From contig JYNZ01000005.1 in assembly GCA_001567355.1 (NCBI GenBank), positions 3,981 to 67,980 of the forward strand: 64,000 bases of DNA. Reading direction: 5' to 3'. The stretch is from a candidate division WS6 bacterium OLB20 (GTDB lineage: Bacteria > Patescibacteriota > Dojkabacteria > B142 > OLB20). Made by a program: the position numbers and the translations under genes. The notes beneath the pieces are model-generated. The model did not search any database, was not told the origin of the DNA, and saw only the letters and a list, made by a program, of their open reading frames with translations. Below, piece by piece: positions 19,715 through 50,582 of this stretch (position 1 is its first letter; each line of letters opens with the position of its first letter).

Positions 19715-19744
19715 GTTGTACGGCCTGATTAGCGCATAGTACAA

Positions 19745-23835: not shown

Positions 23836-23888
23836 CCGGCTGTCCTCTTACCTGGCCTGGATGAAGTCTGGTATAATTGCCACACGAT

Positions 23889-23974
23889 GCAGACGTGGCG
23901 GAATGGTAGACGCGCTACCTTGAGGTGGTAGTGGGAGCAATCCTGTGGAGGTTCAAGTCCTCTCGTCTGCACCA
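23889..23974 (+). tRNA. tRNA-Leu (GAG), type II with long variable arm, CCA encoded
   Basis: Acceptor GCAGACG/CGTCTGC, anticodon loop TTGAGGT, long variable arm and T-arm GGAGG-TTCAAGT-CCTCT. Confidence 0.85.
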
Positions 23975-24066
23975 GTTTTATCAGCAATAGTTTTACCGCA
24001 ATTATTGCTGTCTGGTATAATCAGTTCGCTTGCCATAGCAGGCTGTTCCTGAAACAACCACACTGC

Positions 24067-24141
24067 GGGGCCGTAGCTCAACCTGGTTAGAGCACCCGCC
24101 TGTCACGCGGGAGGCTGCGAGTTCGAGCCTCGTCGGCCCCG
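24067..24141 (+). tRNA. tRNA-Asp (GTC), CCA not encoded
   Basis: Acceptor GGGGCCG/CGGCCCC, anticodon stem CCCGC/GCGGG with loop CTGTCAC, T-loop TTCGAGC. The flanks form an extended inverted repeat (CACTGC...GCAGTG). Confidence 0.85.
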
Positions 24142-24986: not shown

Positions 24987-25556
24987 TGAGGGCTTCACAA
25001 ACCAGGCATGGACCTCACTGATTGATCCGTCTATAAGATCAGTCTTCTCATCAACATGATGGATCACATAGCCGCTTGAGCAAAGCTTTCTGCCAGTCCA
25101 GGTAAGGCATGCCGCGCTGTTGTCACACGGGACCTGTCGCGCCTGCATATACTCCTGCCAGTTCTGGCTTTTACCGGGAATGTTATACCATTTACCACGA
25201 ACACCACGGACTTCACCAAACACTCCTGCATCAGCAGCAGCAAGGATGTCAGTCACAAACTGTCCTGCACGCAGATCCGGATGATAACCTTCGGGAGTAA
25301 GGAATCCATACACATCGTCTTCATCTCCCATGAGACGGGTCTTATACGAGAATGATAAAAACCTGTTAGCGGGGTCGATATATGCCTGTGTTACAAACCT
25401 TCTCTCATACTGGGCATCTGCATACCTGATACGAAGGATCTGCCCGTTATCCACCTCGATCTGATAACGGATCGGACGTGACAGACCGGTCTCTGAGGGA
25501 TCAAGGATCCGGTCGACCGCAACCAGTTCAGGATTGAATACCCGGAGATGTTCCAT
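24978..25556 (-). CDS. hypothetical protein
   Basis: 192-aa ORF convergent with the nuclease gene; no recognisable domain. Confidence 0.4.
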   Translation of the reverse strand: MEHLRVFNPELVAVDRILDPSETGLSRPIRYQIEVDNGQILRIRYADAQYERRFVTQAYIDPANRFLSFSYKTRLMGDEDDVYGFLTPEGYHPDLRAGQFVTDILAAADAGVFGEVRGVRGKWYNIPGKSQNWQEYMQARQVPCDNSAACLTWTGRKLCSSGYVIHHVDEKTDLIDGSISEVHAWFVKPSSG

Positions 25557-25561
25557 GATGG

Positions 25562-25939
25562 CTATGAAGTGGGAGTTTGACCCTGCTGTGGATCAGTTAA
25601 ATCGTATTCGACTGTCTCAAATGTGTACGTTCCACCCAGTCCAAAAGGCCTCTCATCAGAGCCGATGCGAAAGCCGTTGCGTTCATAAAACCTTCTTGCT
25701 CGATCCTCACAACCTTCATCTGGAGAAAACACTCCCCTGATCCGCTGCATTCCGCGCATGCGGGCAGCAGTGACAAACATCTCCAGCAGAGAATCTGCAA
25801 GACCGCTGCCGCGCAAGGCGCTTTCAACCCTGATAGTTTTCAGGGTTGCCGTCCGGCTTTGTTCATCAAACGATCCTTCAATGAAGGTACTGCCGGGACG
25901 TCCGCTCTGCTCATCAAACTTGCCGTAGAACCATTCCAC
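25562..25939 (-). CDS. GNAT-family N-acetyltransferase
   Basis: 125 aa with an acetyl-CoA binding-like segment (RGSGLADSLLEMFVTAARMRGMQRI). Confidence 0.6.
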   Translation of the reverse strand: MEWFYGKFDEQSGRPGSTFIEGSFDEQSRTATLKTIRVESALRGSGLADSLLEMFVTAARMRGMQRIRGVFSPDEGCEDRARRFYERNGFRIGSDERPFGLGGTYTFETVEYDLTDPQQGQTPTS

Positions 25940-26137
25940 AGGTATATATTTATTATATTATATTGTACTACTTTTTAATGCTCCTGAAAAGGGTTAAAAC
26001 CTTGTCATGCAACGTTATCTGAAGTAGACTGAGTAGTAAACCCGTAGCTTCGGGTGTACTTAGTATGCATGCACTAACCGTTACTCAATACTGTCTTGCT
26101 GCACAGCATTAGACGATTGCTACACAAAACACTGCCC

Positions 26138-29100
26138 ATGTTCTTTGCAGCACTGATTCTGGCTACCCCTCTGGCCGGGTCGTTCATCCTGCCTGACCGT
26201 GTCGCTGCTGCAAACTGGCTCGCTGACAACTGGGGATACCGCCGTGAGATCACAATTACCGGCAACGGATCCGACCTGACTGATATCCAGTACCAGCTCA
26301 CCGGGATTGACACCCAGACCCTCTACAACGAAGGTAAACTGCAGTTTAACTGTCAGGATGTCCGTTTTACCAATGCAAACGGTGCACTGCTGCACTACTG
26401 GATTGAGGATGACGATACACCCTGTGCCACTGACACCGGAACCGACTTCTGGATACGATTACCGCGGGCAGAGTCTGAAGGCACCACAATCTATATGTAC
26501 TACGGTAATCCCGATGCTGCGCCTTACTCATCAGGCAGTAACACATTTACATTCTTTGACGGACTGGGATACTCACCTGCAGCATGGTACAACTCTTCAT
26601 GGAGTTACCGTAAGCGTCTGACGGTCAATCATACCAGGGTCTTTGACAGCACCGTTAGCAGTTTTCCTGTCTATATAGACATGTCATTACTGGGTGATGA
26701 TTTCTGGACTGGCGTCGATGCGCAGGGTGATGACGTCGTGGTTACCGCAGCAGATGGCACAACAAAACTGCCACGTGAACTGGTTACCATTGATGCAGGT
26801 ACAAAGTCGGGTGAGCTCTGGTTTAATGCACCATCACTTTCAAGCACTGAGGATTCGTACTTTTACATCTACTATGGCAACGGATCTGCAACCGAGACAA
26901 ATGATACAGACACATGGAATTCAGCGTTTACCAATGTGTTTCACTTTGATGATAATCCGACCGTATCAGTTACCGACAGCAAAGGGGGAGTGAGCGGCAC
27001 ATCAGCAGGTAGCATGACCAGTGGCGACGAGGTAGCAGCAAAGGTTGGCAACGGACTTGATTTCGACGGTAATGATGACCGGGTTGACTTCACTGGCACG
27101 ACTTCGGACATTGCGGGACCCTGGACGCTCTCCATGTGGATTTATAATCGTGACACGGCAAATACATTCGCAATTCTGTTTGACTCTGCAACATACTCAA
27201 TCCGGCTTGAACAATCAGGTACAAACAATCTTGGTTATACACGATACTCTGCCGCTGATTACAACGCAGGCTACCGCCTCGAAACATCAGCGTGGAAACA
27301 TGTTACATACATAGATACAGGCTCCCAGATGCGTATTCTTGTTGATGGTGTTCAGGTCTTTTCCTCGGCTACACGGATTAATCTCCCCAGAACACGTATT
27401 GGTCTGTCAGCCACTCACGCTATCAACGGTGTCCTAGACGAGAGTAAACTGTCAAATGTTGCCCGGTCAGACGGATGGATCAGAACCGAGATCAGTAACC
27501 AGTCAGACCCGGATGGATTTATTACCGCGTCCGGTCAGGAGGCAACCTCCGGCTCATACGACCGACTGCTCACTGCGGGTTCACCCGTACAGACAGATGA
27601 GGGAACGATAGAGCTGTCAGATCCATCAGGCATTGAGGGTCTGCAGTCACAGACGCAATATGCCATCAACAGCAAAGCTGTCTTCCGGGTCTCACAGTCT
27701 TCAACTGCACTTAATGCAGGTCGCCTCGGATTTTCTAATACATCATTTGCAGGCGGAACGATGTTTGCAGATGATGCGGCATACGTTGTACTGAATTCCG
27801 CTGTAACCAACTGGGACAGATCCGTCCGCAATGACGGCACTGCCACCAATGGCACAGGAAGCATTGCTGAGACGACAGCACTCAGCGAGTTTGAAGTCGG
27901 CTGGCGCACAGGCGGTGTCGATTTTCGAGTCAATAATGCCAGCAACGGATCACTCACCACGAACGTTCCCAACGAAAGCAGTTATATCCGGTTGGAATCG
28001 GATAACACAGCTGACACCATTACGCTTGACTGGGTTGCCGTTGCCACATACAACGCTGATCCGCCCGACAGTCAGGTCGTCGGGAGCGAAGAAAAAAGTC
28101 AGGCGCCACTGCTTTCCCTGAGTTTTGAAGAGTCCGGCGGACAGACCTTGCTCAATACCGGCAGCATCGGTTCTGCAGCAGTATCGTACACCGGTGACTC
28201 AATATTTGCTGCCAGTGATGATCCGTACAGAACACAAGGGTGTCCGACCGGCAGGTGTCTCAGTTTTGACGGCAGTAACGATTCTGTCACAGTTGATCAC
28301 CATGCCCTGCTTAACACAACGCAGTTTTCCTTCAGTATGTGGTACAAGCCTGCAAGCACGTCGACGCAGTACGGTCTGATCAATAAGCATCTGTCACCCA
28401 GTGCAGGCTGGTGGGTGCGTCAGCAGAGTGACGGGACTGTCAGGTTTCTGATCGTGACTGCCTCAGGTAATATCTACGTTACGACCTCAGCCAGTCTGCC
28501 CGTTGCCACCTGGACACATATTACAGGGACATATGATGGAACAACTCCGCGGATTTACTTTAACGGGATAGAGGCTGCCGGAACAGTAACCAACCCTGGC
28601 AACAGCGGGTCAGCGACAACAAGTACCCGACCGCTAAAAATTGGCGAAAGCTGGGCAGACAACGAGAACACACGTGGCGCTATTGACGAGGTTAGGCTCT
28701 GGCCGAGAGGAATTTCTGCTGATGAAGTACTGAGAGAGTATAACTCATACTCTGCCGTACTGGGTGCAGGTACGAGCAGAATCGAAGAAGGCCTCGCAGC
28801 ATGGTGGCAGATGAACGAGCTGACATGGAACGGAACCTCCGGCGAAGTAAAGGATTCTTCAGGCAGCAGCTACCACGGTACAGCCGTAAGCGGTACAGTG
28901 ACGACACCCGGCTACTTCGGGCGTGCAGGTTCTTTTGATGGAACAAACGACTATATTTCAACCGGTGCCCGCACTGTAGATGAACCACCCTACAGTATAT
29001 GCGCCTGGACGCAGGCAGATGTTGCAGCGCCATCCGAAAATAAATACATCATCACCAACGGTGGCGAGACAGGCAGTTCAAACGGCTTTTCTCTCTCACT

Positions 29101-32041
29101 TTTGACGTCGGGCAGTTATGCATTGACGATGAAGAAGTCATCAGGAGTCGGAGGGACTGCCAGCCTGTCCGGTGCCACAACCGGTTGGACCCATCTGTGC
29201 GGTGTATGGGACGGCAGCAGCAATGCGGATAGTATCCGCCTCTACCGTAATGGCACCCTTGCAGCAACTGCCTCGCCGGGACCGGTTTCTGTTGGAGCAG
29301 ACAGCAGCCTGCTGATCGGTCGACCCGTCTCTACGAACGACTTTCACTGGGACGGCAGACTGGATGACGTCAGAGTCTATAACAGGTTACTGTCAGAGCC
29401 TGAGATCAGCTCAATCTACAATTACAGTCCCGGGCCGCTTGCACAATGGAGATTTGACGAACAATCAGGCACAACTGTTAAAGATGACACACTCAACGCA
29501 ATCGACGGAAGTCTCGTGAACATGAATGATGCAAAACGGGTGCCCGGTCTATCAGGGAATGCGCTGGATTTTGACGGCAGCGGAGATTATGTCTCGTTTT
29601 CCAGTGATGCGCTACTCCCGCTGTCCAGTCAAAACAGGTCGTTCAGCCTGTGGGTCAGTCCAAGAACACTGGTAAGCGGTGACAGATATTTCTCTATGGG
29701 TAACTGGGCTGTAGGAAATTCTTTCGACATTGTGTCAAATACCAGCAACAGAATATCGGTTGTAGGACATACCAACAACTACCTCAGTACAGCAGCGATT
29801 CCACTATCAACCTGGACACATGTGGGGATTGTGCTTAACGGCACAAACCTCAGATTCTATCTGAACGGGAAGCTTGACTCGTCTCATACCGTATCACTCA
29901 ACACAGTAGCCTCAGGGGAGTTCCGCATCGGGGGAGTACTGCCGTCTAGGGGTGCAACTGATTACGACGGTTACATTGATGATTTTGTTATCTGGGGACA
30001 TGCGTTGACCGCCCAGGAGATGGAAAATATTTACGCTTACGGTACTGCTGCTAACAGTCTTGAGCTGGGTGATACATTTAACAGTGAGCTGATCGCCTAC
30101 TGGAAAATGGACGAGACCTCCTGGAACGGTACAACCGATGAGGTTATTGATATTGCCGGTGGTGACCATGACGGTACCCGTGTAGGCAACGCTACGACAT
30201 CAGCAGACGCAAAATTTGGCCGGGCGGGAACTTTTGACGGCAACGGTGATTATGTCAATGTCCCCTACAGCAGTGCTTTCACGACGTCAACGTTTACTGT
30301 GTCAGCCTGGATCAAACCTGACGTCCTCGGCCAGAATAGAACCATTATTACAACTGAGCCGAACTCAACCCCGACCCAGAACGGCTTTGGTATACGATTA
30401 CGGTCTGACAACAAATTCTGGCTTACTATCGGCAGAGCAGGCAACTCAGCGTCCGTCAGCAGCACTAAAACTGCAACAGCTGGAACCTGGACACAGGTTA
30501 CCGCGACATATGATGGAGTAACCGCAAAGATTTATATTGACGGAGAACCGGACGGCACTGCCGTAATCAACCGTACCGTTGACTCGACCCAGGCTCTGCG
30601 TATCGGCTGGTTCAGCAGCAGTTTTGTGAACGAAGCATTTGACGGGCAGATCGATGATGTGAGGCTTTACGGCGTCCAGCTTGAAGAGATGGATATAGAA
30701 ACCATATACAACAGATTCAATACTGTATATGGCGGATCTGAATTTGAGACTGGTGCAAGACCCGTTTTACAACACAACTTTGACCAGAAATCGGGGACAA
30801 CAGCAAACGACTCTTCAGGCAACAGTTTTAACGCAACACTGTTCAACATGGACAGCACCAACTGGGTGGACGGCAGGTATGGAAATGCTCTCCAGTTTAA
30901 CGGATCAAATGAATATGCATCGATTGCAAACCAGACACAACTGAATTCAACTGATTTCTCTGTTTCGGCCTGGATCAGGACCACCAGCTCAGGTGTCTCC
31001 AGAGTGCTGACCAAGGAAGGCAACACAAACGGTCAGCAGCGTTATTCTCTCGGAGCGAATGTGTCAGTTGCCGGCCGGGCTGACGTCAGTTTTTACGGCA
31101 CTTCTGTCAATACAGCGCAAAGTACCTCTTCAGTAAATGATGGCGAGTGGCATCACATCCTGGGCACATTCAGTGACACAAACAATCGCCTGCGTATCTA
31201 CGTTGACGGAGTTCTTCAAGCGACAACCACCACGACCCAGTCCCCGGTGGCAAGCAGCAATCCGCTTGAGATCGGCAGGTTTGACAGTGCTGCAGGCCAG
31301 TACTTTAACGGAAGCATTGATCAGGTCAGGTACTGGGAGCGTGAACTGAGTCCACGAGAGGCAGCAATAGAATTCGACGGTGGCAAGCCTGTTGCATGGT
31401 ATAAATTTGATGAGATCGAAGGCAACACTGCATATGACCACTCCGGAAACGGGGTTCATGGAACACTGACCAATATGTCTGTGCCGTCTGTATGGCAGGA
31501 AGACGCAAACTGCAAATACAACGGATGCCTTAGTTTTGATGGCAGCAATGACTACATCAGTGTCCCTCACAACAACGTTCAGAACCAGAACTCAGTCTCA
31601 ATCTCTCTCTGGGCGCGCTTCACTACCCTGGCAACGAGACCGCACGTGGTTACAAAAGGTATTAGCGGCTCTGCAGGAAAATATGCACTCGTAATAGAAA
31701 CCAACGGCATGTTGCGGCTGTTCTACGATACAGGCAGCGGGTGGACGTCAGTTAGCTCTCCAGCGGGACTGGTATCTGTAAACGAGTGGCATCATTTTGT
31801 GGTGACCTATACACCTGGAAGTACGGCAGTTTACTATGACGGCAGACGTGTCGGTTCTGCTGCCCCGGCCGGTAATCTGCGAAGCATTACAAATGCTATA
31901 TCCATAGGTAACTTCCAGGCGGGAGGATACGGGCACGTCAGCGGACGCATCGATGAAGTCAAGATCTGGAACTATGCCCTCACCCAGGATGACATTAACC
32001 GTGAATATTACGCTAACGGAGCCGCACTGCGATATGAATAA
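26138..32041 (+). CDS. giant secreted surface protein A (~1,967 aa): signal peptide, DUF2341-like module x2, then multiple LamG/ConA-like jellyroll repeats and a conserved C-terminal tail
   Basis: Signal peptide MFFAALILATPLAGSF...VAAANW. N-terminal module WGYRREITITGNGSDLTDIQYQLTGIDTQ...CQDVRFTNANGALLHYWIEDDD...FWIRLPRAESEGTTIYMYYGNP, recognised as DUF2341-like from memory. Repeated about 200-aa units match the Laminin_G_3 pattern (GNALDFDG..DYV..., ...SAW..., ...W.HV..TYDG....LYLNG, ...DG.IDDVRVYNR.LS..EI). The first ATG after the TTG at 26096 was chosen as start. Confidence 0.75.
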   Translation: MFFAALILATPLAGSFILPDRVAAANWLADNWGYRREITITGNGSDLTDIQYQLTGIDTQTLYNEGKLQFNCQDVRFTNANGALLHYWIEDDDTPCATDTGTDFWIRLPRAESEGTTIYMYYGNPDAAPYSSGSNTFTFFDGLGYSPAAWYNSSWSYRKRLTVNHTRVFDSTVSSFPVYIDMSLLGDDFWTGVDAQGDDVVVTAADGTTKLPRELVTIDAGTKSGELWFNAPSLSSTEDSYFYIYYGNGSATETNDTDTWNSAFTNVFHFDDNPTVSVTDSKGGVSGTSAGSMTSGDEVAAKVGNGLDFDGNDDRVDFTGTTSDIAGPWTLSMWIYNRDTANTFAILFDSATYSIRLEQSGTNNLGYTRYSAADYNAGYRLETSAWKHVTYIDTGSQMRILVDGVQVFSSATRINLPRTRIGLSATHAINGVLDESKLSNVARSDGWIRTEISNQSDPDGFITASGQEATSGSYDRLLTAGSPVQTDEGTIELSDPSGIEGLQSQTQYAINSKAVFRVSQSSTALNAGRLGFSNTSFAGGTMFADDAAYVVLNSAVTNWDRSVRNDGTATNGTGSIAETTALSEFEVGWRTGGVDFRVNNASNGSLTTNVPNESSYIRLESDNTADTITLDWVAVATYNADPPDSQVVGSEEKSQAPLLSLSFEESGGQTLLNTGSIGSAAVSYTGDSIFAASDDPYRTQGCPTGRCLSFDGSNDSVTVDHHALLNTTQFSFSMWYKPASTSTQYGLINKHLSPSAGWWVRQQSDGTVRFLIVTASGNIYVTTSASLPVATWTHITGTYDGTTPRIYFNGIEAAGTVTNPGNSGSATTSTRPLKIGESWADNENTRGAIDEVRLWPRGISADEVLREYNSYSAVLGAGTSRIEEGLAAWWQMNELTWNGTSGEVKDSSGSSYHGTAVSGTVTTPGYFGRAGSFDGTNDYISTGARTVDEPPYSICAWTQADVAAPSENKYIITNGGETGSSNGFSLSLLTSGSYALTMKKSSGVGGTASLSGATTGWTHLCGVWDGSSNADSIRLYRNGTLAATASPGPVSVGADSSLLIGRPVSTNDFHWDGRLDDVRVYNRLLSEPEISSIYNYSPGPLAQWRFDEQSGTTVKDDTLNAIDGSLVNMNDAKRVPGLSGNALDFDGSGDYVSFSSDALLPLSSQNRSFSLWVSPRTLVSGDRYFSMGNWAVGNSFDIVSNTSNRISVVGHTNNYLSTAAIPLSTWTHVGIVLNGTNLRFYLNGKLDSSHTVSLNTVASGEFRIGGVLPSRGATDYDGYIDDFVIWGHALTAQEMENIYAYGTAANSLELGDTFNSELIAYWKMDETSWNGTTDEVIDIAGGDHDGTRVGNATTSADAKFGRAGTFDGNGDYVNVPYSSAFTTSTFTVSAWIKPDVLGQNRTIITTEPNSTPTQNGFGIRLRSDNKFWLTIGRAGNSASVSSTKTATAGTWTQVTATYDGVTAKIYIDGEPDGTAVINRTVDSTQALRIGWFSSSFVNEAFDGQIDDVRLYGVQLEEMDIETIYNRFNTVYGGSEFETGARPVLQHNFDQKSGTTANDSSGNSFNATLFNMDSTNWVDGRYGNALQFNGSNEYASIANQTQLNSTDFSVSAWIRTTSSGVSRVLTKEGNTNGQQRYSLGANVSVAGRADVSFYGTSVNTAQSTSSVNDGEWHHILGTFSDTNNRLRIYVDGVLQATTTTTQSPVASSNPLEIGRFDSAAGQYFNGSIDQVRYWERELSPREAAIEFDGGKPVAWYKFDEIEGNTAYDHSGNGVHGTLTNMSVPSVWQEDANCKYNGCLSFDGSNDYISVPHNNVQNQNSVSISLWARFTTLATRPHVVTKGISGSAGKYALVIETNGMLRLFYDTGSGWTSVSSPAGLVSVNEWHHFVVTYTPGSTAVYYDGRRVGSAAPAGNLRSITNAISIGNFQAGGYGHVSGRIDEVKIWNYALTQDDINREYYANGAALRYE

Positions 32042-35000
32042 CATTCATAAACTGAAGCAGAAAATCTACAGCCCGGCAGTCCGGATATTGCTTGTTGCGG
32101 TTGTTCTGATCATGCCAGTTGCAGGTATTACCGTGTTTCCTGCTGATGTATCAGCAGCTCAGTGGCTTGGCGACAGCTGGGGCTACAGGCGTGAGATCAC
32201 AATTACCGGCAATGGATCCGACCTGACTGATATTCAGTACCAGCTGACAGGTATTGATACCCAAGCGCTGTACACAACCGGTAAGCTCCAGTTCAACTGT
32301 GAGGATGTCAGGTTTACAAATGCAAACGGTGCCCTTCTTTACTACTGGATCGAGGATGATGACACCGCCTGCGGTGAGGATACCAGCACAGACTTCTGGA
32401 TCAGACTGCCACGGGCAGAGACCGAAGGAACCACAGTGTACATGTACTACGGCAACCCTGCTGCCGAACCGTACAGCTCGGGTAGCAATACGTTTCATTT
32501 TTTTGATGATCTCAACAGTTACAATGCACCCTGGTACGACCTGAACTGGCCATCGAGAGTCAGCTTCAAGGTTAATCATTCAAAAGTCGAATCATCTTCC
32601 CTGACAGATTTTCCCGTTTACTTTGATCTTTCGTTGCTGGGAGACGACTTCTGGAACAATGTGGATCCTCAGGGAGACGATATCGTAATCACCGCAGCAA
32701 ACGGAACAACAAAACTTTCCCGTGAGCTCGTTTCCCTAAACACCGGTACACAAACTGGTCAGCTATGGTTTAAAGCACCTCAACTGTCGGGCACAGAAGA
32801 TACGCTCTATTACTTATACTTTGGCTACAACTCTGCTGCCGAAACTAATGATACCGGTACATGGACAAATTATGCCAGTGTACACCACCTGGAAAGTGAC
32901 CCCTCTGGCAGTGCGCCTCAGTTTACAGACAGCTCAGCAGCAGGACTCAATGGTACGTCAGGCGGCACAATGAATTCCGGAGATCTTGTCAGCGGCATTA
33001 TCGGTAACTCAATCGAATTTGACGGTGTAAACGACTATATCTCAATCGGCACCAATGCACTGCATGCGTATACAAACAATTTTTCAGTTTCTGCATGGGT
33101 AAATCTGAACACGTTATCCACCGGTGCTCAGCATGTTTTCGGAACATACGGAGGGCGCTGGGTAATTCAGGAGACCGACGGATTATTCCAGTCAAATTCA
33201 TTTACCTCTGGGAACAATATTATCAGCTCAACCTCGAGTACGGGGTGGGTACACCTGGCTATGTCAAAGCGAAGTTCGGGAACAGGATCAGAGCTCTTTA
33301 TCAATGGCCGTTCGGTGTCCAGTTCGTCAGCGACAGCAAACATATCCAATGTTACGAACACCTCGACCCAGATCGGCAGCGACTCGTTCAGCTACCCGGC
33401 CAGAAGTACCGATGGAAGGATTGACGAGGTACGGTTTCACACCACACCGAGAACTGCAGGCTGGTTTGCCACAGAGTACAACAACCAGTCGTCTCCCGAA
33501 GATTTTCTCACTATCTACTCGGTTCAAAGTTCGAATGCATCCGGAACATCAATGGATAATTTTCAGCTTTCAGGTTCTCCCCAGTTCAGCAATGGCACGG
33601 TCTCACTGTCTGATGCGTCAACTGTCGAAGGTATTCAATCCGATGCACAGTTTGGTATCAACAGCAAGGCCATCTTCAGAGCGTCGCAATCAACCACAGC
33701 ATTGCAAACCGGCAGACTGGGTTTCAGCAACAGTGCGTTCCCGACAGGTTTTACCAGTGACGATGCAGCAATGATATTGCTTAACAGCGGAACAAACTGG
33801 CATGGCGAAAACAGCAACGAGGGTTCTGCTACAACAGCAGCAGGATCAATTGCGGAGACGACAGCATTAAGCGAGTTTGAGGTTGGCTGGCGGACAGGCG
33901 GTGTCGACTTCCGGATCAACAATATCAGCAATGGTGCAATCACTACAAACGTTCCCAATGAGAGCAGTTATGTACGGTTTGAGTCGGATAACACAGCTGA
34001 CACCATTACACTAGACTGGATCGCCGTTGCCGGTTACAACGCTGATCCTCCAGACAGCCAGGTGGTCGGCAGCGAAGAACTGGGGAGCGGTCCGGTACTC
34101 TACTTACCACTGGATGAAACATCCGGACAGGAACTCGTCAACAGAGGATCAGGTGGCTCTGCCTTAAACGGTTATCTTGGCAACACAGCTGCAGCATCAA
34201 CCGCAGACCCTCGCAGGATCAGTGACTGTATATCAGGCAACTGTCTCAGCCTTGATGGTACAACCGACATGTTTCAGGTCAATGATCATAATCTGCTCGA
34301 CTTCGGCACCGGAGACTTTACACTGTCACTCTGGATGAAACCCGGTGACCAGGCTGGAGGGAACACAAACTATTCCGCTGTGTTCATCAAGGCATCCAAT
34401 CCTTCACCACCGTATGAAGGGATGACGGCATTCTTTGATACTCCAATCGCAACTCCTGCCGGAAGGACTACATTCAGGGTAAGCAATGCTAGCGAACTGA
34501 CCTCAAATGCATCCGGCATGGACAATAATACCTGGCGTCACTTTACTTACATTCGCAGCAGCAATCAGCTGCAGATATATATCAATGGGGTTCTGGACAG
34601 CACGCTTAACATCTCTTCGCTCAATATTACAAATACCGCCCCGCTCCGATTCGGCTCTAACCATACCTCCACAACAACACAGAATTTCTACGGACTGATG
34701 GATGAGATCAAAGTCTGGCCCAGAGCTCTTTCTCTGTCAGAGATACGTGAGCAATACAACGAGAACGCGTCCGTGCTTGGCAGTTCTGCTAACAGTACAC
34801 TTGATGGTCTTGCGGGCTGGTGGAAGATGGATGATGCCAACTGGAACGGTACTGCAGGAGAGGTCCGTGACAGCTCAGGACTTAACCTGAACGGTACGAC
34901 CGTCAACGGAACAGGTTTAACCTCAGGGATAACACACAGAGCAGCCTCTTTTGATGCAACAAATGACCGGATTGACCTGCCTGCTTCATCGGCACTTGAT

Positions 35001-38000
35001 TTGCAGCGCCTCTCGATTACTGCGTGGATTTATCCAAATGCACTGGATCAGAATGGCAATATCTTTACAAAAACCACGAACGGATCCGATAACACCCAGT
35101 ATCTCTGCTTTCTGCAGGGTACCCCCTACAACACACCACGACTGATCTGGAGAACGGTCAATGGCGCGACGTCCTACGATCTGCATGTCGATATTTCATC
35201 GACTCCGATTACAGCCAGCTCATGGCACCATATTGCCTGTACCTATGACGGATCATTCAAGCGTATATACGTTAACGGAGAACTGGAGGCAGAAGTCGCA
35301 TTCTCCACCCCGATCAACACGAACGCAGCAGGAATAAGCAGAATCGGCTCGCTTGGTGGCGGATTTGTATTTAACGGAAGGATCGACGACGTACGGGTCT
35401 ACAACAGAGGGCTCAGTGAGGAGGAGCTTTACGAAGTCTATACCTACCAACCCGGTCCGCTCGCCCATTGGAAGTTTGACGAGCAGTCCGGAACGACTGT
35501 TTTCGATGATACACTCAACACCTTAAACGGCAGCCTGGTGAACATGGACGACAGCAAGCGGATACAGGGACGTTCAGGCAATGCACTTGATTTTGATGGT
35601 ACCGTGGATTATGTGTCATTCCCAAGTGACAGTATTTTGCCAGCAGGAAATCAAAGCAGATCGTTGAGTTTCTGGGCACGACCGAGAACCCTCGCAAGTG
35701 GCGACAGGTATTTTTCTATGGGGAACTGGGCAGTCGGCAATTCGTTTGATGTTGTCTCTAATGTCAGCAACAGAATATCGGTGGTGGGACATACGAATAA
35801 CTACATAAGTACTGCATCTGTACCCCTTTCCACCTGGACTCATGTTGGTATAGTCCTTAACGGGACTAACCTGCGATTCTATCTTAACGGGAAGCTTGAC
35901 TCATCCCATACCGTATCGCTCAATACAGTAGCCGCAGGAGAGTTCCGCATCGGCGGATCGCTGCCGTCACGAGGTGCGACAGACTATGACGGATACATTG
36001 ATGATATGCGGATTTATGGCTATGCACTCACACAGACAGAACTAGTAGCCCTTTGGCAACATGAAGCTGGAATACATGCCGCTGATGATTCCGCAGACCT
36101 CTACGCCTACTGGAAGTTTGATGAGAGCACATGGACCGGTATATCATCAGAAGTACATGACTCATCAGGCAACAGCAACCACCTGACAGCATTTAACGGC
36201 GTTACAACAACCGGCGACGCTGTCTTTGGCAGAGCCGGCAGCTTCAACGGCAGCAGTCACTATCTCAGCGGTGCCAGTTTTAATGTTACCGGTGATTACA
36301 GCGTGACCGGATGGTTTAAGACCTCAATGGCCGCAGACGGTGATGTGATCGCACTCACATCAGGGGGCAACCACGGAATCCTGATTGAGAAGTCATCCAG
36401 CGTGGCTTCACCACCACACAGTCTGCGCTTTCTTCACCGAAAGCCAGTCGGAATAAGCGGTGGACAGAACCTGCAATCTAATCGAGCCGTAAATGACAGC
36501 ACTTGGCATTTTTTTTGCTGCCGTCCAGTCAAGTACCTCACAGATGGAGTTATACATTGACGGAGCATTATTGACTTCAACCACACCGACAGGCACCTTT
36601 AATGACACATTAACTGCAACAATCGGCAGAATAAGCAACCTTAGTTCTGCACGATACTTCAGCGGTCAGATAGACGAAATCAAGGTATGGAAGAAGGCAC
36701 TGTCCGCAGAAGACGTAAGCGGAGAGTACCTGCGCCAGAATCTAATAGCCGGTTCAGAGAATGACCGTTCGCCTGTACTCAAGCATAACTTTGATCAGAA
36801 GTCAGGTACATCTGCGCTTGACTCATCCGGTAACAGCTTCAATGCGACGCTGTTCAACATGGACAGTACCAACTGGGTGAAGGGTAAAAGCGGGAATGCC
36901 CTGCTGTTTAACGGCTCAAACGAATACGGAACAATTGCCAACCAGACACTGCTTAACTCAACAGACTTCAGTGTATCAGCCTGGTTTAAAACGACCAGCA
37001 CATCACAGGGCAGAATACTGACAAAAGAGTCAAACACCAATGGACGTCAGCGATATTCGCTCGGAGTAAACGTAGCACTGACCGGACGCGCTGAAGTCCG
37101 GTTTGATAGTGGGACTCCAGTAATAGCTCAGAGTACATCCACCATCAACGACGGTAACTGGCATCACATTTTGGGCACGTTCAGTGACTCCAATAATCGA
37201 TTGAGACTTTACATTGATGGCAGGCTGGAGACGACTACTACAACAGCGCTAACTCCTGAAGCAAGTAGCAATCCCGTTGACATCGGCAGATTTGACGGAT
37301 CCTTTGGACATTATTTTAATGGTACGATCGATCAGATCAGATACTGGAACCGTGAGCTGACACCGCGTGAGGCAGTGATGGAATATTCCGGTGGTTCAAC
37401 GATCGCCTGGTATAAGTTTGATGAGAACGAAGGTAACACAGCCTATGATCACTCAGGTAACGCTGCACACGGTACATTATCCAACATGAGCCCCGCATCT
37501 GACTGGCAGGATGAAGCGAACTGTCAGAACAACGGCTGTCTCAGCTTTTCAGGAGGAAACGATTACATTGGTCTTACGAACGAGTCACTGTTTGACTTTG
37601 AACGCACCTCACAGTTCAGTGTCTGCACCTGGGCACGGTTCAATAACATTACTGATACGTCGCACACTCTGGCTGGCAAACTGGATGGCACAAACAGGGG
37701 CTGGGAGTTTACCGCGTACGATGGTGCGACGGGATCGGACGGACTGCTGGTTTACCTGATCAGTACATGGCCATCCAACAGGATTACTAATATCTACGAC
37801 AATGCTCTGAGTGCAAACCGCTGGTACCATCTCTGCCTCACATATGACGGCAGCGTCACGAATGCCGGCGTCAAAGTCTATCGTGACGGACAGCTGCTGA
37901 CGCCGACAAGCACTACAAACACGCTGTCAGGCACTATGCTGCAGAATGCCCCGGCGTATGTCGGGGGCCGGACAGGCGGTTCCGGAAACCTGGGCCATAA

Positions 38001-38100
38001 TGGCAGAATGGATGAGATGAAAATATGGAATTACGAACTGACACAGGAAGACATTAACAGGGAATATACATCTAACGGTGCCGCGCTGCGCTATGAATAG
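32034..38100 (+). CDS. giant secreted surface protein B (paralog of A; ~2,020 aa if the frameshift at the T8 run 36509-36516 is corrected)
   Basis: The start ATG at 32034 overlaps the gene A stop (ATGAATAA). Same architecture as A. Two ORFs (31953..36560 and 36493..38100) overlap at a T8 homopolymer; removing one T gives a continuous LamG repeat ...DSTWHFFAAVQSSTSQMELYIDGALL. The C-terminal tail NREYTSNGAALRYE is conserved. Confidence 0.7.
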
Positions 38101-41100
38101 ACACTTCCGACAGCTGAACAGACGGATCCACAGTAAAACTGCCACTGTTGTGATGGTGCTCATGGTTATTGCAACACCGCTTTTGAGTATGACTGTTTTT
38201 CCTGCTCCGGCAGCAGCAACGGGCTGGCTTGGTGAACAGTGGGAATACAGGCGTGAGATCACGATCAGCGGTAACGGCAGTGACCTTACAGATATTCAGT
38301 ACCAGCTTACAGGAATCGATACTCAGACTTTGTACAATGAGGGGAAACTGCAGTTTGACTGTCAGGATGTCCGATTCACTAATGCGTATGGTGCTCTGCT
38401 GCATTTCTGGATCGAAGATGACAGTTCGTCATGCGGGGTTGATACCTCGACCGACTTCTGGATACGACTGCCGCGCGCTGAAGCTGAAGGTACAACTATA
38501 TTCATGTACTACGGTAATCCCCAGGCACCGGCATACCTTAGTCCCGAGCGTACCTTCGACTTTTTCAGTCAGTTTTCCTCGTTCAGAGTACCCTGGTATA
38601 ACAGTGCCTGGCAGAACAGACTCAAGATCAGTATAAATCGCGAGAAAGTGAGGGGTACTATTCCCAATTTTCCGGTAGCACTCGATCTCTCGATTCTCGG
38701 ATCGGCATTCTGGCAGAACGTTGATCCGCAGGGAGACGATCTGGTGATTACAGCAGCTGACGGAACTACAAAACTAGCCCGTGAACTGGTTACGATAAAC
38801 ACCGGGACAGAAACAGGGACACTCTGGTTTAAAGCACCGGTTGTAACAAATGAAGAAGATACCGACTTCTACCTTTACTACGGAAATCCTGCTGCCACCG
38901 AGACCGATGATACTGCCACCTGGAGCGGTCACGGACTGGTTCAGCATCTTGAAGAATCTCCTACAGGCAGCGCTCCTCAGATAACCGACAGTTCGGGGAG
39001 CAACAATAATGGAACTACGAGCGGGTTTGTTTCGGGAGATCTCGTAGATACTGTAATCGATAGCGGACTTAACTTTGACGGGAACGATAACGAGGTGAAC
39101 AGTGGCATCCCGTTTGCATCGGTCACTAACAACTTCAGTTACTCCTTCTGGGCGTATCCCGAATCCACACGGACCGAGACAGTGCAGGCCAACAGCGGTA
39201 TTACCGGAACAAGCGGCCAGCGGTTTGTTGTCTACCCCGAACACGGGGGCGTGGCTTTCGGCTCAAATGCACGTGCAGGTGCAGGCGTCTCATTCGGGAC
39301 AAACGGAATATCTGTGTTTGAACATTCCGGATCCTATCTGCCATCTCTGCTCGTCCACAATCACCCGTATACCGGCTGGACCCATGTCGTGGTTGTATAC
39401 AGTGCAGGGACACCAGTTCTGTACGTTAACGGAAAATTCGTTAAGACAGGTCTCGCAAGTACCAAAACGGTGCACCCGGGTGCGTCTCTGGCAATCGGAG
39501 CATTCGGTAAATTCGACGGACTTGTTGATGAATTCCGTGTCATCAATTCTGCAGTCACACCCAACTGGATATCGACCGAGTACGAGAACCATTCATCACC
39601 CGAGACGTTTTTTTTACTGTCAGTGAATCGGTTTCTCAGGTTAATGATTCATCAGTTCAGTCGTATCCGCCCGATCCTGCAAGTGCAGATCCTGTCTGGG
39701 TGTACAACGGCACCCCGGATACGCTTGATGGAACGGTTGTACTGCAAGACGTATCGGGAGTTGACCGGTTCAGATCTGAAGAAACATTCGCGGTAAACTC
39801 AAGGCTCATCTTTCGCGCAAGACAGACAGATGTTACTCTCAACAGTGCGACAGCAGGTTTCAGCAACAGCGAACTCTCTGCTGCGGCAACCGCTGATGAC
39901 GCGGCAGTCAGACTGTTTGACAGCTCCAGTGGAGGTAATTTTGAACGCACTGTGGTCAACGAATCCGTTTCCACTTCTGGAACAGGCTCTCTGCTGGAAG
40001 ATACACAATTCCACGATTTTGAGATCGGCTGGCGTTCCGGTGCGATTGACTTCAGGATAGATAACACGTCAGACGGCACCCTGAGTACAAACGTACCAAA
40101 TGAACCATCTTATATCAGGTTCGATAACAACTCAACGTCGGTTTTATTCCAGGTCGACTGGGTTGCAGTTGCGAACTACCATGATGATCCGCCTGACTCA
40201 CAGGTTGTCGGTTCAGAACAGCGTTCTGATCGTCCGGCAGTTTACTATCCTCTGAACAGAAATCAAACAAACAGTCAGATCGCTGATGAGTACTTCAATA
40301 CACGACAGCATAAACTGACACTTGGATCGACAAATCAATCAGACAGTGCTGATCCTGTCTGGTCAGATCAGTGCATTAAAGACAGCTGTCTTCTGTTTGA
40401 CGGTGCAAATGATTTTGCCGGTCCCATCACTGATGGACAGTTTGCGTCTGTCTCAAATACTTTTTCCATGTCAATCTGGGCACATCCGACTGCAACACGC
40501 GTTACAACTGCAGAGGCAAATGGTAACAACTTCAGCGCAGGTCACCAGCACCGGCAGGCAATTGCGGCAAGTCAGGGCACCCTTTTATATGGCAGCGGCA
40601 GGGTTAGCGCAGGATTGTCCGTCGGGACTAACGGTGTCAGTGTGATTGAGCATGGATCCTCATACTTCTCCACTCCGCTCGTGCACGATATGGCATTAAG
40701 CGGCTGGAACCATATTGTTGTTGTCTATGAAAACAAGCAGCCACGCATCTATGTAAACGGATACCTTGTTCATACCGGCATCACCAGCGACCGTACCGCA
40801 ATACATCCCAGCAACTATCTTGGTGACACACAGAGCAATTACGGTACGTTTAAAGGTTTCCTCGATGAATTCAGACTGTATCCGCGCGTTCTGACAGAGA
40901 CTGAGATACGGCAGCAGTATAACGAGGGTTCATCTGTCCTGGGTGTCTCGACTGGTGGCAGTGCTTTGAGCAACGGCCTTGTCGGCTGGTGGAAGATGGA
41001 CGAGACTGCGGCAAACCAGTGCAGCGGTGGTGTCAATGACAGCTGCGATTCTTCGGGCAGCGGCAACGATATGGCCTGGGCTGGTAATACTTCAGCAAGC

Positions 41101-44100
41101 GGCGGCAAATACGGTAATGCAATGCTGTTTGACGGCACGGATGATTACATGCGCAGGACATCACCGTCAAATATTCCGACAGGCGCGAGCCCGCGCACCG
41201 TTTCAGCCTGGGTACATCTTAATGCTCTTGGCACAAAACAGGCTATCTTTCAATACGGACCGATCGGGGTCACCCGCAATACGCTGCTTTTGAATATCAG
41301 CGCTGCAAATGTTCCGGAGTTTACTTCATGGGCTGACGGCGCGACATCATCCACTGCTCTCTCAACCGGTGTCTGGTATCATCTCGTTGGCACCTACGAT
41401 GGTGACCTGACGATGAAGATCTACATCAACGGTGAGCTTGATACCACGCATACGCTTGGCGGTCAGTTGATCTCCACGGTTGATGCAACAGGTATTAATA
41501 TGGGTGCCTGGCAGGCCGGGATACTTGATGACCTCAACGGCAGACTTGATGATGTCAGGCTCTACGACCGCGAACTCAGCGAGGTTGAGGTACAGGAGTT
41601 GTATGGTTACCGTCCCGAGATGCTTGCCCACTGGAAATTTGACGAGAAGTCAGGGACAACCGCATACGACAGTACGATCAATGCCAGAAACGGCACACTT
41701 ACAAACATGCAGAGTCCGGGCTGGATAAACGGCCGGGTCGGAGGAGCACTGGAGTTTGACGGGACAAACGATTTTGTATCGGTCGGTACTCAACAGGCGT
41801 TTGCCTTTCCGCTGAGTTCATCCTTCAGCGTTTCAGCATGGATAAACCCCGCGCTTGATTCGTCCGATGACGTGATCATCGGCAATGCCTGGGATGAGGC
41901 CGGCTGGCATATGCGGGTAACCTCAGCAAACAGAGTGCGATTTATTGTGCTTACGAACGGCAGCAATAACACCTACTCTGATACAGCTGTCCTGTCTGCA
42001 GGCTGGAACCATGTTACTGCCATCTGGAACGGAAGCACTGTGAAAACGTATCTCAACGGAGTTGAAAGCAGCAGTGTTGTGAGTAACGGAACAGTGTCCA
42101 CCATTACTCCTGCAAATCCGCTGCTGATCGGAAATGATATTGCTGACCAGTCACACTACTTTAACGGTACAATTGACGATGTCAGGATCTGGAACTACCA
42201 GCTGACAGATTCAGAGGTCTACAAGGTCTTTCAGGGCGATTCACAAAGCAGCTCACAGTCAGGATTATATGAACGAACAGTTACGCTTTCATCAGCAACC
42301 CCGCTCGACAACTATCAGGTGCGTATTGCCCTGACAGGCTTTGACTACAACAAGGTACAGGCAAACGGCGAGGACATCCGATTCTACGCGGGAGGTAATC
42401 AACTGGATTACTGGATCGAGACATGGAACACTTCCGGAACATCAGTGATCTGGGTCGAGGTACCCTATGCAGGGACCAACGCACTGTCAATGCAGTATGG
42501 TGATGCCTCTGCAGTAGCGGGATCTGACGGCGCAGCAACGTTTATCTTTTTCACTGACCTCTCCAGTGATCCGGGTCTTACCGGTACTAACAGTGCCAAC
42601 GGATACGCAAATTACGATTCGGCAAATGATGATATTGTCTATTACTTCAGACGTGATACCTCATCACTGGTTAACCGCTATTTCGATCTGGGTATGACTA
42701 CCGATCCCACAAACATTGCAATTGATTTCCGCTGGCGCAGAACGTCGCAGCAGCTAAATCAGTTTGGCGACGCATTCGGTTTCATTGGTATATCAAAAGT
42801 CACAGTACCCGGGACAATCATGGGATACAATTACATCAACGATACCGATAGTGCACCAAACGCATTCTTCAGAGGCGCGTATAATGGAATTGCCGGCGGA
42901 TCCGGTATCAGCTCAAATACTACGACCTATCAGGTTTCAAGCGGAATTGACGGCACCGATGCTGAGATGACAGCCTGGCAGAACGGATCTCAGGTCATCA
43001 ATTCTCCCCGTACGATTACCTCTGATGCCGGGGGCTACTCGCGCTTTAATATCTACCGGCAAAACTATGGTAATGCACAGGACTTTAACAACCACGTCGC
43101 CCGTATTGATGACATCCGGATCAGAAAGTTTTCCGCCTCAGTTGAGCCACTGACAACAACCGTTCAGGCAGAAGGGATTGCCCTCTCCTCTGTCAACGTT
43201 ACTGCAGAGCAGACGTCATCCCCGTCTCTGATGCTCAATCTCGACAGCAAGTCCGGAACAACTGCAACAGACAGTGGAACGCTCGGAACAAACGGCACGC
43301 TTACCAATATGGATGACAGCAACTGGGTACGCGGCCGTTTCGGAAGTGCTGTAAACCTTAATGGTACAGATGAATTTATCAGCGTTGCTAACTCAACAGC
43401 ACTGAATTCAACTGATTTCTCTGTTTCCGCCTGGATCAGGACCACCAGCTCAGGTGTCTCCAGAGTGCTGACCAAGGAAGGCAACACAAACGGTCAGCAG
43501 CGTTATTCACTCGGCACCAACGTATCAGTTGCAGGGCGTGCCGATGTCAGTTTCTACGGTACCTCAGTAAACACAGCTCAAAGTACATCTACAGTAAATG
43601 ACGGTGAGTGGCATCACATCCTGGGCACATTCAGTGACACAAACAATCGCCTGCGTATCTACGTTGACGGAGTTCTTGAAGCGACGACAACCACTACGCA
43701 GACGCCGGTTGCAAGCAGCAATCCGCTTGAGATCGGCAGGTTTGACAGTGCTGCAGGTCAGTACTTTAACGGCAGCGTCGATCAGGTCAGGTACTGGGAA
43801 CGAGAACTGAGTCCGCGAGAGGCAGCAATAGAATTCGACGGTGGCAAGCCTGTTGCATGGTATAAATTTGATGAGATCGAAGGCAACACTGCATATGACC
43901 ACTCCGGAAACCAACTGCACGGCACACTCTCTAATATGAGTCCATCCACAGACTGGATAAACGGTAAAATAAACGGAGCTCTTGATTTCGATGGCTCAAA
44001 TGATGGTGTCGACCTGCCGGAAAACTCTATACTGAACTTCGGATTCAATGATGAGGTTACCGTTTCCGCCTGGGTAAAACCTACAGTACTCGGTGATGAT

Positions 44101-44514
44101 TACATATTCAGTCAGCAGAGATGTAACGGGGGTGCCATACAGCTCTATATCACCTCGCTTGGTGCAGCGATATTCAGAGTGCAAGACACTTCCAGTAACC
44201 AGACATTTGCGATATCGGACAACAGCCTGATTCAAACAGGAAGCTGGAATCATATCGTTGGCACGCGGGATAAGGAGACAGATTCTCTCCGGCTGTATGT
44301 AAATGGCAATCTAGTTGAAGATCTGGTGGATAACACCCTCACAACAATAACAAATGCTTCAACAGAGAACTGGGTCGGAAGAAGGTACCCGTGTGCTCTG
44401 ACTGATAACATTAATGCAACGATTGATGAGGTGAAGATCTGGCGCTATGCTCTCATACAAGAGGATGTCAGCAGAGAGTATACTGCAAACGGTGCAGCGC
44501 TCAGGATTGAGTAG
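38093..44514 (+). CDS. giant secreted surface protein C (paralog of A/B; ~2,140 aa if the frameshift at the T8 run 39608-39615 is corrected), with three DUF2341-like modules
   Basis: The start ATG at 38093 overlaps the gene B stop (ATGAATAG). ORFs 38078..39796 and 39700..44514 overlap at the T8 run. A third DUF2341-like module lies about 42250-42560 (...QVRIALTGFDYNKVQANGEDIRFYAGGNQLDYWIETWNTSGTSVIWVEVPYAGTNALSMQYGD). C-terminal tail SREYTANGAALRIE. Confidence 0.7.
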
Positions 44515-44621
44515 TGGTCCAGTACGATGGTCTTACAGACCCTGTGGAGTATTCGTTTGCATCTCCTTCTGCTTTCTGTTACAAATTTAGCTGTAGACGC
44601 TACTTGCGTTTGCATGGGTTA

Positions 44622-44653
44622 GAAAAGACGGTTTCGGCCGTCTTTTCTTTTTT
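44622..44653 (+). terminator. rho-independent terminator after the giant gene array
   Basis: Hairpin GAAAAGACGG-TTTCGG-CCGTCTTTTC followed by TTTTTT, located about 110 nt after the gene C stop. Confidence 0.65.
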
Positions 44654-44678
44654 AATGCTCGGTTATACTGTAGTGCAG

Positions 44679-45608
44679 ATGCAAAATGTTCCGACCACAG
44701 TAGTCACCGGTACGCTCGGTGCAGGTAAAACAACAATCATTATAAATCTGATCAGGCAGCTGCCCGCTGACTACTCCACTGTATGGCTGAAAAACGAATA
44801 CGGTGATGTCAATATTGATTCCGAACTGGCAGCGGCCAGTAACATTCAGACCAAAGAGATACTCAATGGCTGTCTGTGCTGCGTACTTGTGGGCAAGCTC
44901 CATGATGCACTTGAGGAAATCATGCGTACCCTCAAACCTGACCGGCTGATCATCGAGACTGCCGGAACAGCATACCCGTACCCTGTTATTCAGCAGATCC
45001 AGCGCACCGGGGGACTTGAGCTGGACGGGCTGATTGCAGTCGTAGACGCAGTAAATTATGAAGCATTCAGAGACAACAGTATGATGGCCAAACAGCAGGC
45101 ACGGTTTGTAGATCTGGTTATACTGAACAAAACCGGACTCGTAAACGAAAAGCAGCTGGAGAAAGCCCTCGACTTTGTCCACGATCAGTATCCAGGTGTA
45201 CCTAAGCTCAAAACTGCTGACGGAAAGATTCATAAAGATGCTCTGATCGGTCTTGATGCAAGACTTGTCTATCATCCGGAGGATCACGATGACCCCCATG
45301 AACATCACGACCACCATGGCGATCACGCTGACACGGTTGAAGCATTCGGGTTTATCGATAAAAACCGCACCTATTCACAGAAGAACATTGATGAGATGCT
45401 GAAAACCATCGAACACTGGGGTTTTGTTCGTATTAAAGGCATTATTAATACAGAGAAGGGACCCAGGCTGCTGAACGTCGTTTTTGAACGAATCACCTGG
45501 GAGGACATCCCACACTATTCCGGTCCGACCCGCATCACGTTTATGGGTAAGCAGATCAACAGACTACAAGATAAGGTACAGAACCTGTTTGCAGCCTGCG
45601 CAGACTGA
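44679..45608 (+). CDS. COG0523-family GTPase / zinc metallochaperone (CobW/ZigA/YeiR-like)
   Basis: Walker A GTLGAGKTT, metal-binding GCLCC motif, and a His-rich C-terminal tract HPEDHDDPHEHHDHHGDHAD. The ATG at 44679 is preferred over the ORF tool start at 44514 because a TATACT -10 sits at about 44663 and the upstream part overlaps a terminator. Confidence 0.75.
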   Translation: MQNVPTTVVTGTLGAGKTTIIINLIRQLPADYSTVWLKNEYGDVNIDSELAAASNIQTKEILNGCLCCVLVGKLHDALEEIMRTLKPDRLIIETAGTAYPYPVIQQIQRTGGLELDGLIAVVDAVNYEAFRDNSMMAKQQARFVDLVILNKTGLVNEKQLEKALDFVHDQYPGVPKLKTADGKIHKDALIGLDARLVYHPEDHDDPHEHHDHHGDHADTVEAFGFIDKNRTYSQKNIDEMLKTIEHWGFVRIKGIINTEKGPRLLNVVFERITWEDIPHYSGPTRITFMGKQINRLQDKVQNLFAACAD

Positions 45609-46595: not shown

Positions 46596-46642
46596 TATCC
46601 GGATGGTAACAGGTTACGGCCTTTTTTGCAAACGATTTGCAA

Positions 46643-47389: not shown

Positions 47390-47409
47390 AACAGCATCTA
47401 TGATACTAT

Positions 47410-49177: not shown

Positions 49178-49190
49178 CCGTCAGATATCA

Positions 49191-50258: not shown

Positions 50259-50313
50259 TAAAGTATAGTTAGATACAGCTTATGTCCTGAAGACAGTAAC
50301 GTCAACTCATACC

Positions 50314-50553: not shown

Positions 50554-50582
50554 CTCTTACACTTCTGGTTCTCTATGGGGGA

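Follow-up and report, generated by a model that had tools for sequence, protein, structure and literature searches.

What do three giant paralogous genes arranged in tandem in the genome of WS6 bacterium OLB20 encode, and are all three of them intact? The genes lie in a 64,000-nucleotide (nt) stretch of DNA, referred to here as the window, which is part of a 138,667-bp contig. NCBI taxonomy places OLB20 in Candidatus Dojkabacteria, and its genome was binned from a full-scale partial-nitritation/anammox reactor (PMC4821891). An earlier interpretation made from the letters alone (the sequence-only reading) had described three intact, translationally coupled genes for secreted DUF2341-LamG proteins of about 2,000 residues each. 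On balance we favour an amended account, in which the array is a coupled operon of exported, lectin-like binding proteins and only the first of them, A, is full length.

The array consists of three collinear paralogous units (A, B and C) on the + strand, at about 26.1-44.5 kb. The three-unit layout was borne out. The intactness of all three genes was not: the array holds five long open reading frames (ORFs), one for A and two pieces each for B and C, which carry frameshifts that were reproduced in later sequencing runs. The features, with window coordinates, are as follows.

26096-32041, + strand: ORF A, 1981 aa; gene A, the sole intact paralog, spans 26096/26138-32041 (1981 aa from TTG 26096; 1967 aa from ATG 26138, as in KXK25994.1)
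31953-36560, + strand: ORF B 5', 1535 aa; the gene B 5' part, frame 0, spans 32034-36560 (1508 aa from ATG 32034; KXK25995.1 uses an earlier ATG, 1523 aa)
36493-38100, + strand: ORF B 3', 535 aa; the gene B 3' part, +1 frame, spans 36517-38100 (KXK25996.1, 518 aa from ATG 36544)
38078-39796, + strand: ORF C 5', 572 aa; the gene C 5' part, frame 0, spans 38093-39796 (567 aa from ATG 38093; KXK25997.1, 547 aa)
39700-44514, + strand: ORF C 3', 1604 aa; the gene C 3' part, -1 frame, spans 39616-44514 (KXK25998.1, 1520 aa from GTG 39952)
32034-32041, + strand: A/B stop/start overlap of 8 nt, ATGAATAA
38093-38100, + strand: B/C stop/start overlap of 8 nt, ATGAATAG
44621-44648, + strand: intrinsic-terminator-like hairpin (12 bp, 5 GC pairs) followed by a T-run, 107 nt past the C stop

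Two starts are conceivable for A: GenBank and the sequence-only reading use ATG 26138, whereas TTG 26096 would add a basic n-region as in B and C that the ATG start does not give. The five coding sequences correspond to GenBank KXK25994.1 to KXK25998.1, with KXK25994.1 an exact match to A and KXK25995.1 100% identical to the 5' piece of B. They are named "Laminin G domain protein" or "hypothetical protein" in GenBank and "DUF2341 domain-containing protein" in UniRef. The array sequence has been in the public record since 2016, and proteins of this type are common, already catalogued and uncharacterised.

That A, B and C form one coupled three-gene operon, as had been proposed, is supported by the 8-nt overlap at each junction (both overlaps proved exact), by the single strong terminator, predicted earlier and located here after C, and by the recurrence of the layout in a second Dojkabacteria genome. 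This metagenome-assembled genome (GCA_046753765.1, locus L001) holds an uninterrupted pair of genes, for proteins of 2676 and 2139 aa, with the architecture of the OLB20 array and an N-terminal module 55% identical to that of OLB20. It also shares the 8-nt overlap (tATGAGTAA; ATGAGTAA after ...RYE) and the ...RYE/RFE C-terminus. OLB20 differs in having three genes rather than two, and in that two of these are frameshifted at tracts of eight T residues (T8) that the relative is without. The two-gene array of the relative is followed directly (24765-28031 of that locus) by a gene for another giant secreted protein, of 3183 aa, in which a signal peptide is present and Pfam recognises no domain.

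The three proteins share one architecture: a signal peptide, two DUF2341 domains, a first LamG domain (LamG1), a domain that we call X, and further LamG domains. Both named families were recognised far above their Pfam cutoffs (23.4 bits for DUF2341, PF10102; 27.6 bits for Laminin_G_3, PF13385), with E-values from 1e-17 to 1e-169. DUF2341 scored 93.8 bits in A (two copies), 83.7 in B (two copies), 88.3 in the C 5' part (two copies) and 62.5 in the C 3' part (one copy), in agreement with the earlier description of a module present twice per protein and a third time in C. Laminin_G_3 scores were 556, 308, 200, 54 and 393 bits. The LamG identity of the repeats was therefore upheld, while their number was revised: a hidden Markov model (HMM) built from the window's own repeats gave 7, 7 and 6 LamG domains in A, B and C, instead of the 8-9 estimated before. 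The other modules are X, which had been lumped in with LamG, and, in C, one further domain. The B 5' part contains the signal peptide, both DUF2341 domains, LamG1, X, LamG2-4 and a truncated LamG5, and the B 3' part the remainder of LamG5, LamG6 and LamG7. The C 5' part carries the signal peptide, two DUF2341 domains and LamG1; the C 3' part comprises X, LamG2-4, the third DUF2341, a further domain (Y) and LamG5-6. Neither 3' part has a signal peptide of its own. The domain features, other than X, are as follows.

26096-26212, + strand: predicted Sec signal peptide of A, aa 1-39 (basic n-region RR..HK, hydrophobic core, VAAA|NW)
26228-26995, + strand: the two DUF2341 (PF10102) beta-sandwich domains of A, about aa 45-165 and 170-300
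27065-27469, + strand: LamG1 of A, aa 324-458, from the own-repeat HMM and Pfam
28268-31987, + strand: LamG2 to LamG7 of A, aa 725-1964
42364-42570, + strand: third DUF2341 of C (Pfam 62.5 bits), followed by domain Y to 43299

LamG1 of A terminates in the family-typical motif "...ARSDGWIRTEISNQSDP", which is also present in homologs. The N-terminal module, for which a structure prediction had been suggested, was modelled with AlphaFold2: the DUF2341 pair of A (aa 42-320) forms two small beta-sandwiches, with a predicted local distance difference test (pLDDT) score of 83. No informative solved structural relative of the pair was found. At the N-termini, the AxA-type sites quoted before (VAAANW in A, VSAAQW in B and AAATGW in C) were all present when read by eye. 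Hydropathy shows one hydrophobic segment per protein, N-terminal and followed by the AxA site, and no other. We accordingly regard A, B and C as predicted to carry cleavable Sec signal peptides and to be secreted, as had been suggested, while the segment may instead act as an uncleaved signal anchor. A Tat-like "RR" occurs at the N-terminus of A and is missing from that of B. The proteins are acidic and rich in N, S, T and G, and no catalytic domain was detected in A-C by Pfam or NCBIfam.

Domain X is an all-beta region of about 195 residues in A (aa 495-690). It occurs once per unit.

27578-28165, + strand: domain X of A
33573-34151, + strand: domain X of B, between LamG1 and LamG2
about 39710-40290, + strand: domain X of C, between LamG1 and LamG2

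X matched no Pfam family and showed no profile similarity to LamG. A profile search of 1.84 billion representative proteins turned up no more than 176 relatives with E <= 1e-3, of which 13 reached E <= 1e-30. In these relatives X usually stands directly after DUF2341, often in proteins of only about 300 aa, and in one of them a weak match to glycoside hydrolase family 16 falls at the position of X. We consider X a rare, unannotated small family and a candidate new domain family that partners DUF2341. Its fold is probably a concanavalin A (ConA)-like jelly roll. In C, the LamG5 position is taken by the third DUF2341 together with domain Y (about 240 residues), which has no Pfam match and no profile similarity to X or LamG. 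The alternatives that X is a diverged LamG, or that Y is a copy of X, were ruled out by hhalign probabilities of 0.2-3.5%.

Overall protein identity is 51% for A/B, 43% for A/C and 41% for B/C, and varies greatly from one part of the proteins to another. The proportion of synonymous differences (pS) is 0.72-0.85, and hence saturated, everywhere except in LamG6 of A versus C, where dS is 0.46 and dN 0.05. The duplications are thus old, because synonymous sites are saturated, and the paralogs have been under purifying selection. Strongly conserved segments are the DUF2341 pair, which is the best-conserved part of the family (proportion of nonsynonymous differences, pN, 0.21-0.26 between paralogs), domain X, and LamG4 of A and B (pN 0.107). 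At the remaining LamG positions the paralogs are 25-35% identical, no more than any two LamG repeats. On these comparisons, the three proteins would amount to a partly conserved scaffold that carries about 15 different LamG modules. LamG6 suggests one later exchange between A and C, with purifying selection since then on a part of C that now lies downstream of the frameshift. Recent gene conversion as the source of the mosaic identity was otherwise ruled out by the saturation elsewhere; even the LamG6 DNA is only 87% identical.

The frameshifts in B and C both fall exactly at T8 tracts, which are the only T runs of at least 8 nt in the window.

36509-36516, + strand: T8 tract in B, inside the LamG5 core strand (...STWHFF|AAVQ...)
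39608-39615, + strand: T8 tract in C, in the linker after LamG1 (...SPETFF|TVSES...)

In B, a +1 shift, T7 or T10 would restore the frame; with one T fewer, a continuous frame of 2048 codons results, with the predicted junction peptide ...STWHFFAAVQSSTSQ.... In C, a -1 shift, T9 or T6 would do so, one T more giving a continuous frame of 2145 codons. The only other homopolymer of 8 nt in the window is an A8 at 53816-53823, which is in frame (GAA AAA AAA CTG) near the start of a 310-aa, Pfam-negative ORF (53797-54729) located just after a response-regulator gene.

Do these shifts exist in the DNA? The OLB genomes were sequenced on Ion Torrent PGM only, and were then "corrected for persistent frameshifts" by script and by hand (PMC4821891). 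If homopolymer-length errors of this platform were responsible and all three genes were really intact, it would be natural for both shifts to sit at the longest T runs of the window, for the frames to be otherwise clean over 527 and 1,632 codons, and for recJ in the same window to be split likewise by two shifts. The comparison of the window with Logan contigs of SRR29904086 argues against this (SRR29904083 also carries the strain; both are 2024-range accessions). Contigs of this run correspond to window positions 1-15016, 14991-24113, 31421-43458 and 43882-56145 with zero mismatches or gaps, about 48.4 kb identical in total, both T8 tracts, the recJ shifts and the in-frame A8 included. The later-run contigs are 9-19 kb long and end at a true repeat, whereas SRR1797697 and SRR1797700, whose accessions are in the 2015 range and which presumably hold the original reads, gave contigs of only about 1 kb. 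The independence and platform of the SRR299040xx runs are themselves inferred from accession range and contig quality. The two recJ shifts, moreover, are at short runs (T5 and C3), of a kind that Ion Torrent normally reads without error. Because the later-run contigs match over 48.4 kb with the T8 tracts included, we hold that the B and C frameshifts very probably exist in the DNA, and an Ion Torrent artefact, downgraded as the main explanation, is distinctly improbable.

The repeat in question is 635 nt long and 87% identical between A (30844-31477) and C (43305-43938). The Logan breaks at 31421, 43458 and 43882 fall in or at it, an expected outcome of short-read k-mer assembly. The same repeat could cause mis-joins in assemblies of the locus. 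As for recJ (window 5387-7023, - strand), two single-base shifts, one of them at a T5 run and the other near TATCCCGACGCGAC, leave the gene in three frame pieces; DHH falls on one ORF, while DHHA1 and the OB fold share another. As this split is identical in the SRR29904086 Logan contig, it is probably real, representing either a pseudogene or a recoded gene.

As the sequence stands, a full-length secreted protein is possible from A only. The product of B would be a secreted protein of 1,508 aa ending in a truncated LamG5, and that of C a protein of 567 aa (signal peptide, two DUF2341 and LamG1). The frames downstream of the tracts are free of stops over 527 (B) and 1,632 (C) codons. For the 3' frame of C, a stop would be expected under neutral drift after about 0.6% divergence; at 2% divergence, a stop-free frame has a probability of 0.03. 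As the 3' frames are still stop-free, the lesions are either recent or subject to partial rescue. Recent truncating mutations in B and C are the leading reading.

Rescue would make the T8 tracts switches, operating either by DNA slippage (phase variation) or by transcriptional or translational slippage that yields a minority of full-length protein. Surface proteins subject to contingency are known from the phase-variable genes of Campylobacter, Helicobacter and Mycoplasma, and genes rescued by slippage include those with poly-A/T tracts in endosymbionts, Shigella mxiE and Thermus dnaX. B and C resemble these systems in that the frameshift falls exactly at a mononucleotide run within a paralogous family of variable surface-protein genes. 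RNA polymerase slippage on a homopolymer can give both +1 and -1 shifts, and could thus supply the +1 that B needs as well as the -1 that C needs. The site in C also reads T_TTT_TTA in phase (39610-39616; U_UUU_UUA in RNA), a classical X_XXY_YYZ -1 slippery heptamer, which is inapplicable to B. The stop-free downstream frames, with the neutral chance given above for C, and the dN/dS of about 0.11 of LamG6 against A, downstream of the C shift, are likewise what a rescued gene would show. Several observations stand against this. No length variation was seen, and the consensus is T8/T8 throughout in the contigs compared (the GenBank record and the later runs alike). Scanning JGI metagenome contigs for in-frame alleles, with two DNA patterns that let the tract length vary, gave no match at all. 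In the public protein collection, neither an allele of another tract length nor a junction-spanning protein was found; a query spanning both junctions matched only the known fragments, and every cluster had a single member. A tract of 8 nt is short for efficient slippage; the sites are not conserved, since the Dojkabacteria orthologs run without interruption and lack any T tract of 7 or more; and no significant RNA structure follows either tract (fold z-scores -1.3 and +0.5), leaving them without a stimulatory element. We consider it unlikely in general that these tracts act as switches. The specific version in which reversible DNA slippage, or slippage by RNA polymerase or the ribosome, sets B and C as N-terminal stubs or as full-length, 2,000-residue adhesins is slightly less likely still. 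If it held, a clonal population of the Candidate Phyla Radiation (CPR) would have a variable surface repertoire, and B and C would be the first loci of the contingency or recoding type on record for the CPR. The two reproducible homopolymer frameshifts could be used to test switching against decay.

What might the proteins do? In the account that we favour, A-C would be Sec-exported, non-enzymatic, beads-on-a-string proteins made from a translationally coupled operon, with the DUF2341 beta-sandwich pair first and then a series of ConA-like jelly rolls (6-7 LamG plus X). They would be displayed on, or released from, a monoderm cell, and their ligands would be glycans or proteins of partner cells or of the granule matrix. 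Some 15 LamG modules, each divergent from the others, could supply differing binding specificities, and a structural or anchoring role is probable for those modules that are strongly conserved (the DUF2341 pair, X, LamG4 of A and B, and LamG6). The 3' parts of B and C would stay silent, except where slippage by RNA polymerase or the ribosome brought them back into frame. Gene layout, domain content, frameshifts, paralog divergence and the recurrence of the layout in a second genome are observed directly, whereas export, location at the surface, binding of ligands and adhesion are inferences; the adhesin interpretation is the standard one for LamG proteins of the CPR and DPANN. The sequence-only reading had tentatively placed the proteins on the outer surface. 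As a member of the CPR, OLB20 is expected by lineage to lack an outer membrane, so "cell-surface or extracellular" is the appropriate wording. It had also tied the array to an episymbiotic or attached lifestyle, a link that is plausible; for WS6 organisms, the source paper proposes no more than fermentative life in the granule core (PMC4821891).

Besides the sequencing platform and the inferred independence of the later runs, several points weigh against this account. No LPXTG motif, SLH domain or C-terminal transmembrane segment was found in A-C by Pfam and hydropathy. As a recognisable wall or membrane anchor is absent, nothing explains how the proteins would be retained at the surface, and simple release is possible. 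The structure model of X is of low confidence (pLDDT 51.5), and no member of the family has experimental or expression evidence. The earlier statement that DUF2341-LamG proteins have no experimentally defined function agrees with the literature, in which papers only infer adhesion or pilus association (PMC4858521, PMC11809585, PMC11310336). Giant LamG/DUF2341 proteins are among the largest and commonest unexplained genes of ultra-small bacteria and archaea, and are routinely invoked for host attachment. The OLB20 locus adds a well-delimited example of a conserved, coupled tandem layout, a map of constrained versus freely diverging modules, and a rare DUF2341 partner domain, X. It does not reveal the ligand of the proteins.

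The gene neighbourhood matches the one reported before, with genes resembling glycosyltransferase families 4 and 2 (GT4 and GT2-like) upstream and CobW-like and ZnuA genes downstream. Also upstream are tRNA-Leu, tRNA-Asp, a nuclease gene and a GNAT gene. The glycosyltransferase pair, 2-6 kb from the array, together with a habitat in the granule core rich in extracellular polymeric substances (PMC4821891), could suggest that the proteins are not adhesins and serve as secreted binders or scaffolds for polysaccharide capture, or as a structural envelope layer. However, the pair is set apart from the array by two tRNA genes, the nuclease gene and two opposite-strand genes, and there is no catalytic partner in the operon. 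Such extreme domain-to-domain divergence is also not expected of envelope-layer proteins. We consider this alternative improbable, and return to exported binding proteins as the favoured account.

A further possibility places the proteins on a filament of the type IV pilus kind, as accessory or tip adhesins. The DUF2341 annotation derived from MJ1470 reads "predicted component of type IV pili-like system". In Methanococci, genes for large DUF2341 proteins (arCOG03508), proposed as tip adhesins, lie within type IV pilus loci (Makarova et al, 2016, PMC4858521), and giant DUF2341 proteins of Patescibacteria have been noted with the pilus annotation carried over (PMC11809585). The Methanococci proteins resemble those of OLB20 in that DUF2341 is part of a secreted protein of very large size for which adhesion has been proposed, a hypothesis there too. 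Unlike in Methanococci, the OLB20 window holds no pilus gene: no pilus ATPase, platform protein, prepilin peptidase or pilin was recognised among the roughly 45 ORFs scanned in its 64 kb, and no link by gene neighbourhood was found. The signal peptides, with their AxA sites, resemble signal peptidase I substrates and not class III prepilins. LamG is also the distal module of TafC of the haloarchaeal Tat-fimbriae, modelled at the filament tip as a presumed adhesin (PMC11821415), and the OLB20 LamG repeats match the LamG part of the NCBIfam TafC model (NF052521, model positions 153-354 of 373). The score, 237.8 bits over six LamG stretches, is below the cutoff of 410. This weak match reflects LamG-to-LamG similarity only, and OLB20 differs from TafC in lacking the donor-strand N-domain and the taf gene cluster. 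Taken together, a pilus-associated role is very unlikely.

Other known systems bear on the favoured reading of exported binding proteins. LamG/concanavalin surface proteins are the usual attachment candidates in CPR and DPANN (PMC11310336, PMC9563170). SPEARE and other DPANN/CPR LamG proteins are, like those of OLB20, giant, secreted and LamG/concanavalin-like, and come from ultra-small organisms with reduced genomes, with attachment inferred. Unlike SPEARE of Nanohaloarchaeota, the OLB20 proteins have no serine protease or restriction-endonuclease domain by Pfam, and they have DUF2341 and X. In a search of 5.8 billion proteins, 153 matches at E <= 1e-10 were obtained, all of them large DUF2341 and/or LamG proteins, held by Patescibacteria, DPANN and other archaea, Actinobacteria and other groups. 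Homologs overall extend across CPR, DPANN, Thermoplasmata, Planctomycetes and other groups. At 59 related loci in GTDB representative genomes the gene was usually single, with at least two copies in 5/59.

Some observations elsewhere in the window stand apart from the array. An Rfam scan of the window returned five tRNAs and nothing else. Beside ZnuA, four consecutive ORFs (46643-50258) have no Pfam match, and the expected ZnuB/ZnuC partners were not recognised. A 448-aa ORF at 50872-52218 (- strand) has weak matches to both hexokinase domains (E about 5e-6), and the ORF upstream of it (52157-52990) has no match. The ORF at 54716-55276 (+ strand) has a match, with E 5e-29, to the CarS-like CDP-archaeol synthase family (PF01864), here in a bacterial (CPR) genome. 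Finally, a 727-aa DUF2298 membrane protein (1005-3188, - strand; E 5e-94) is encoded between folD and glyA.

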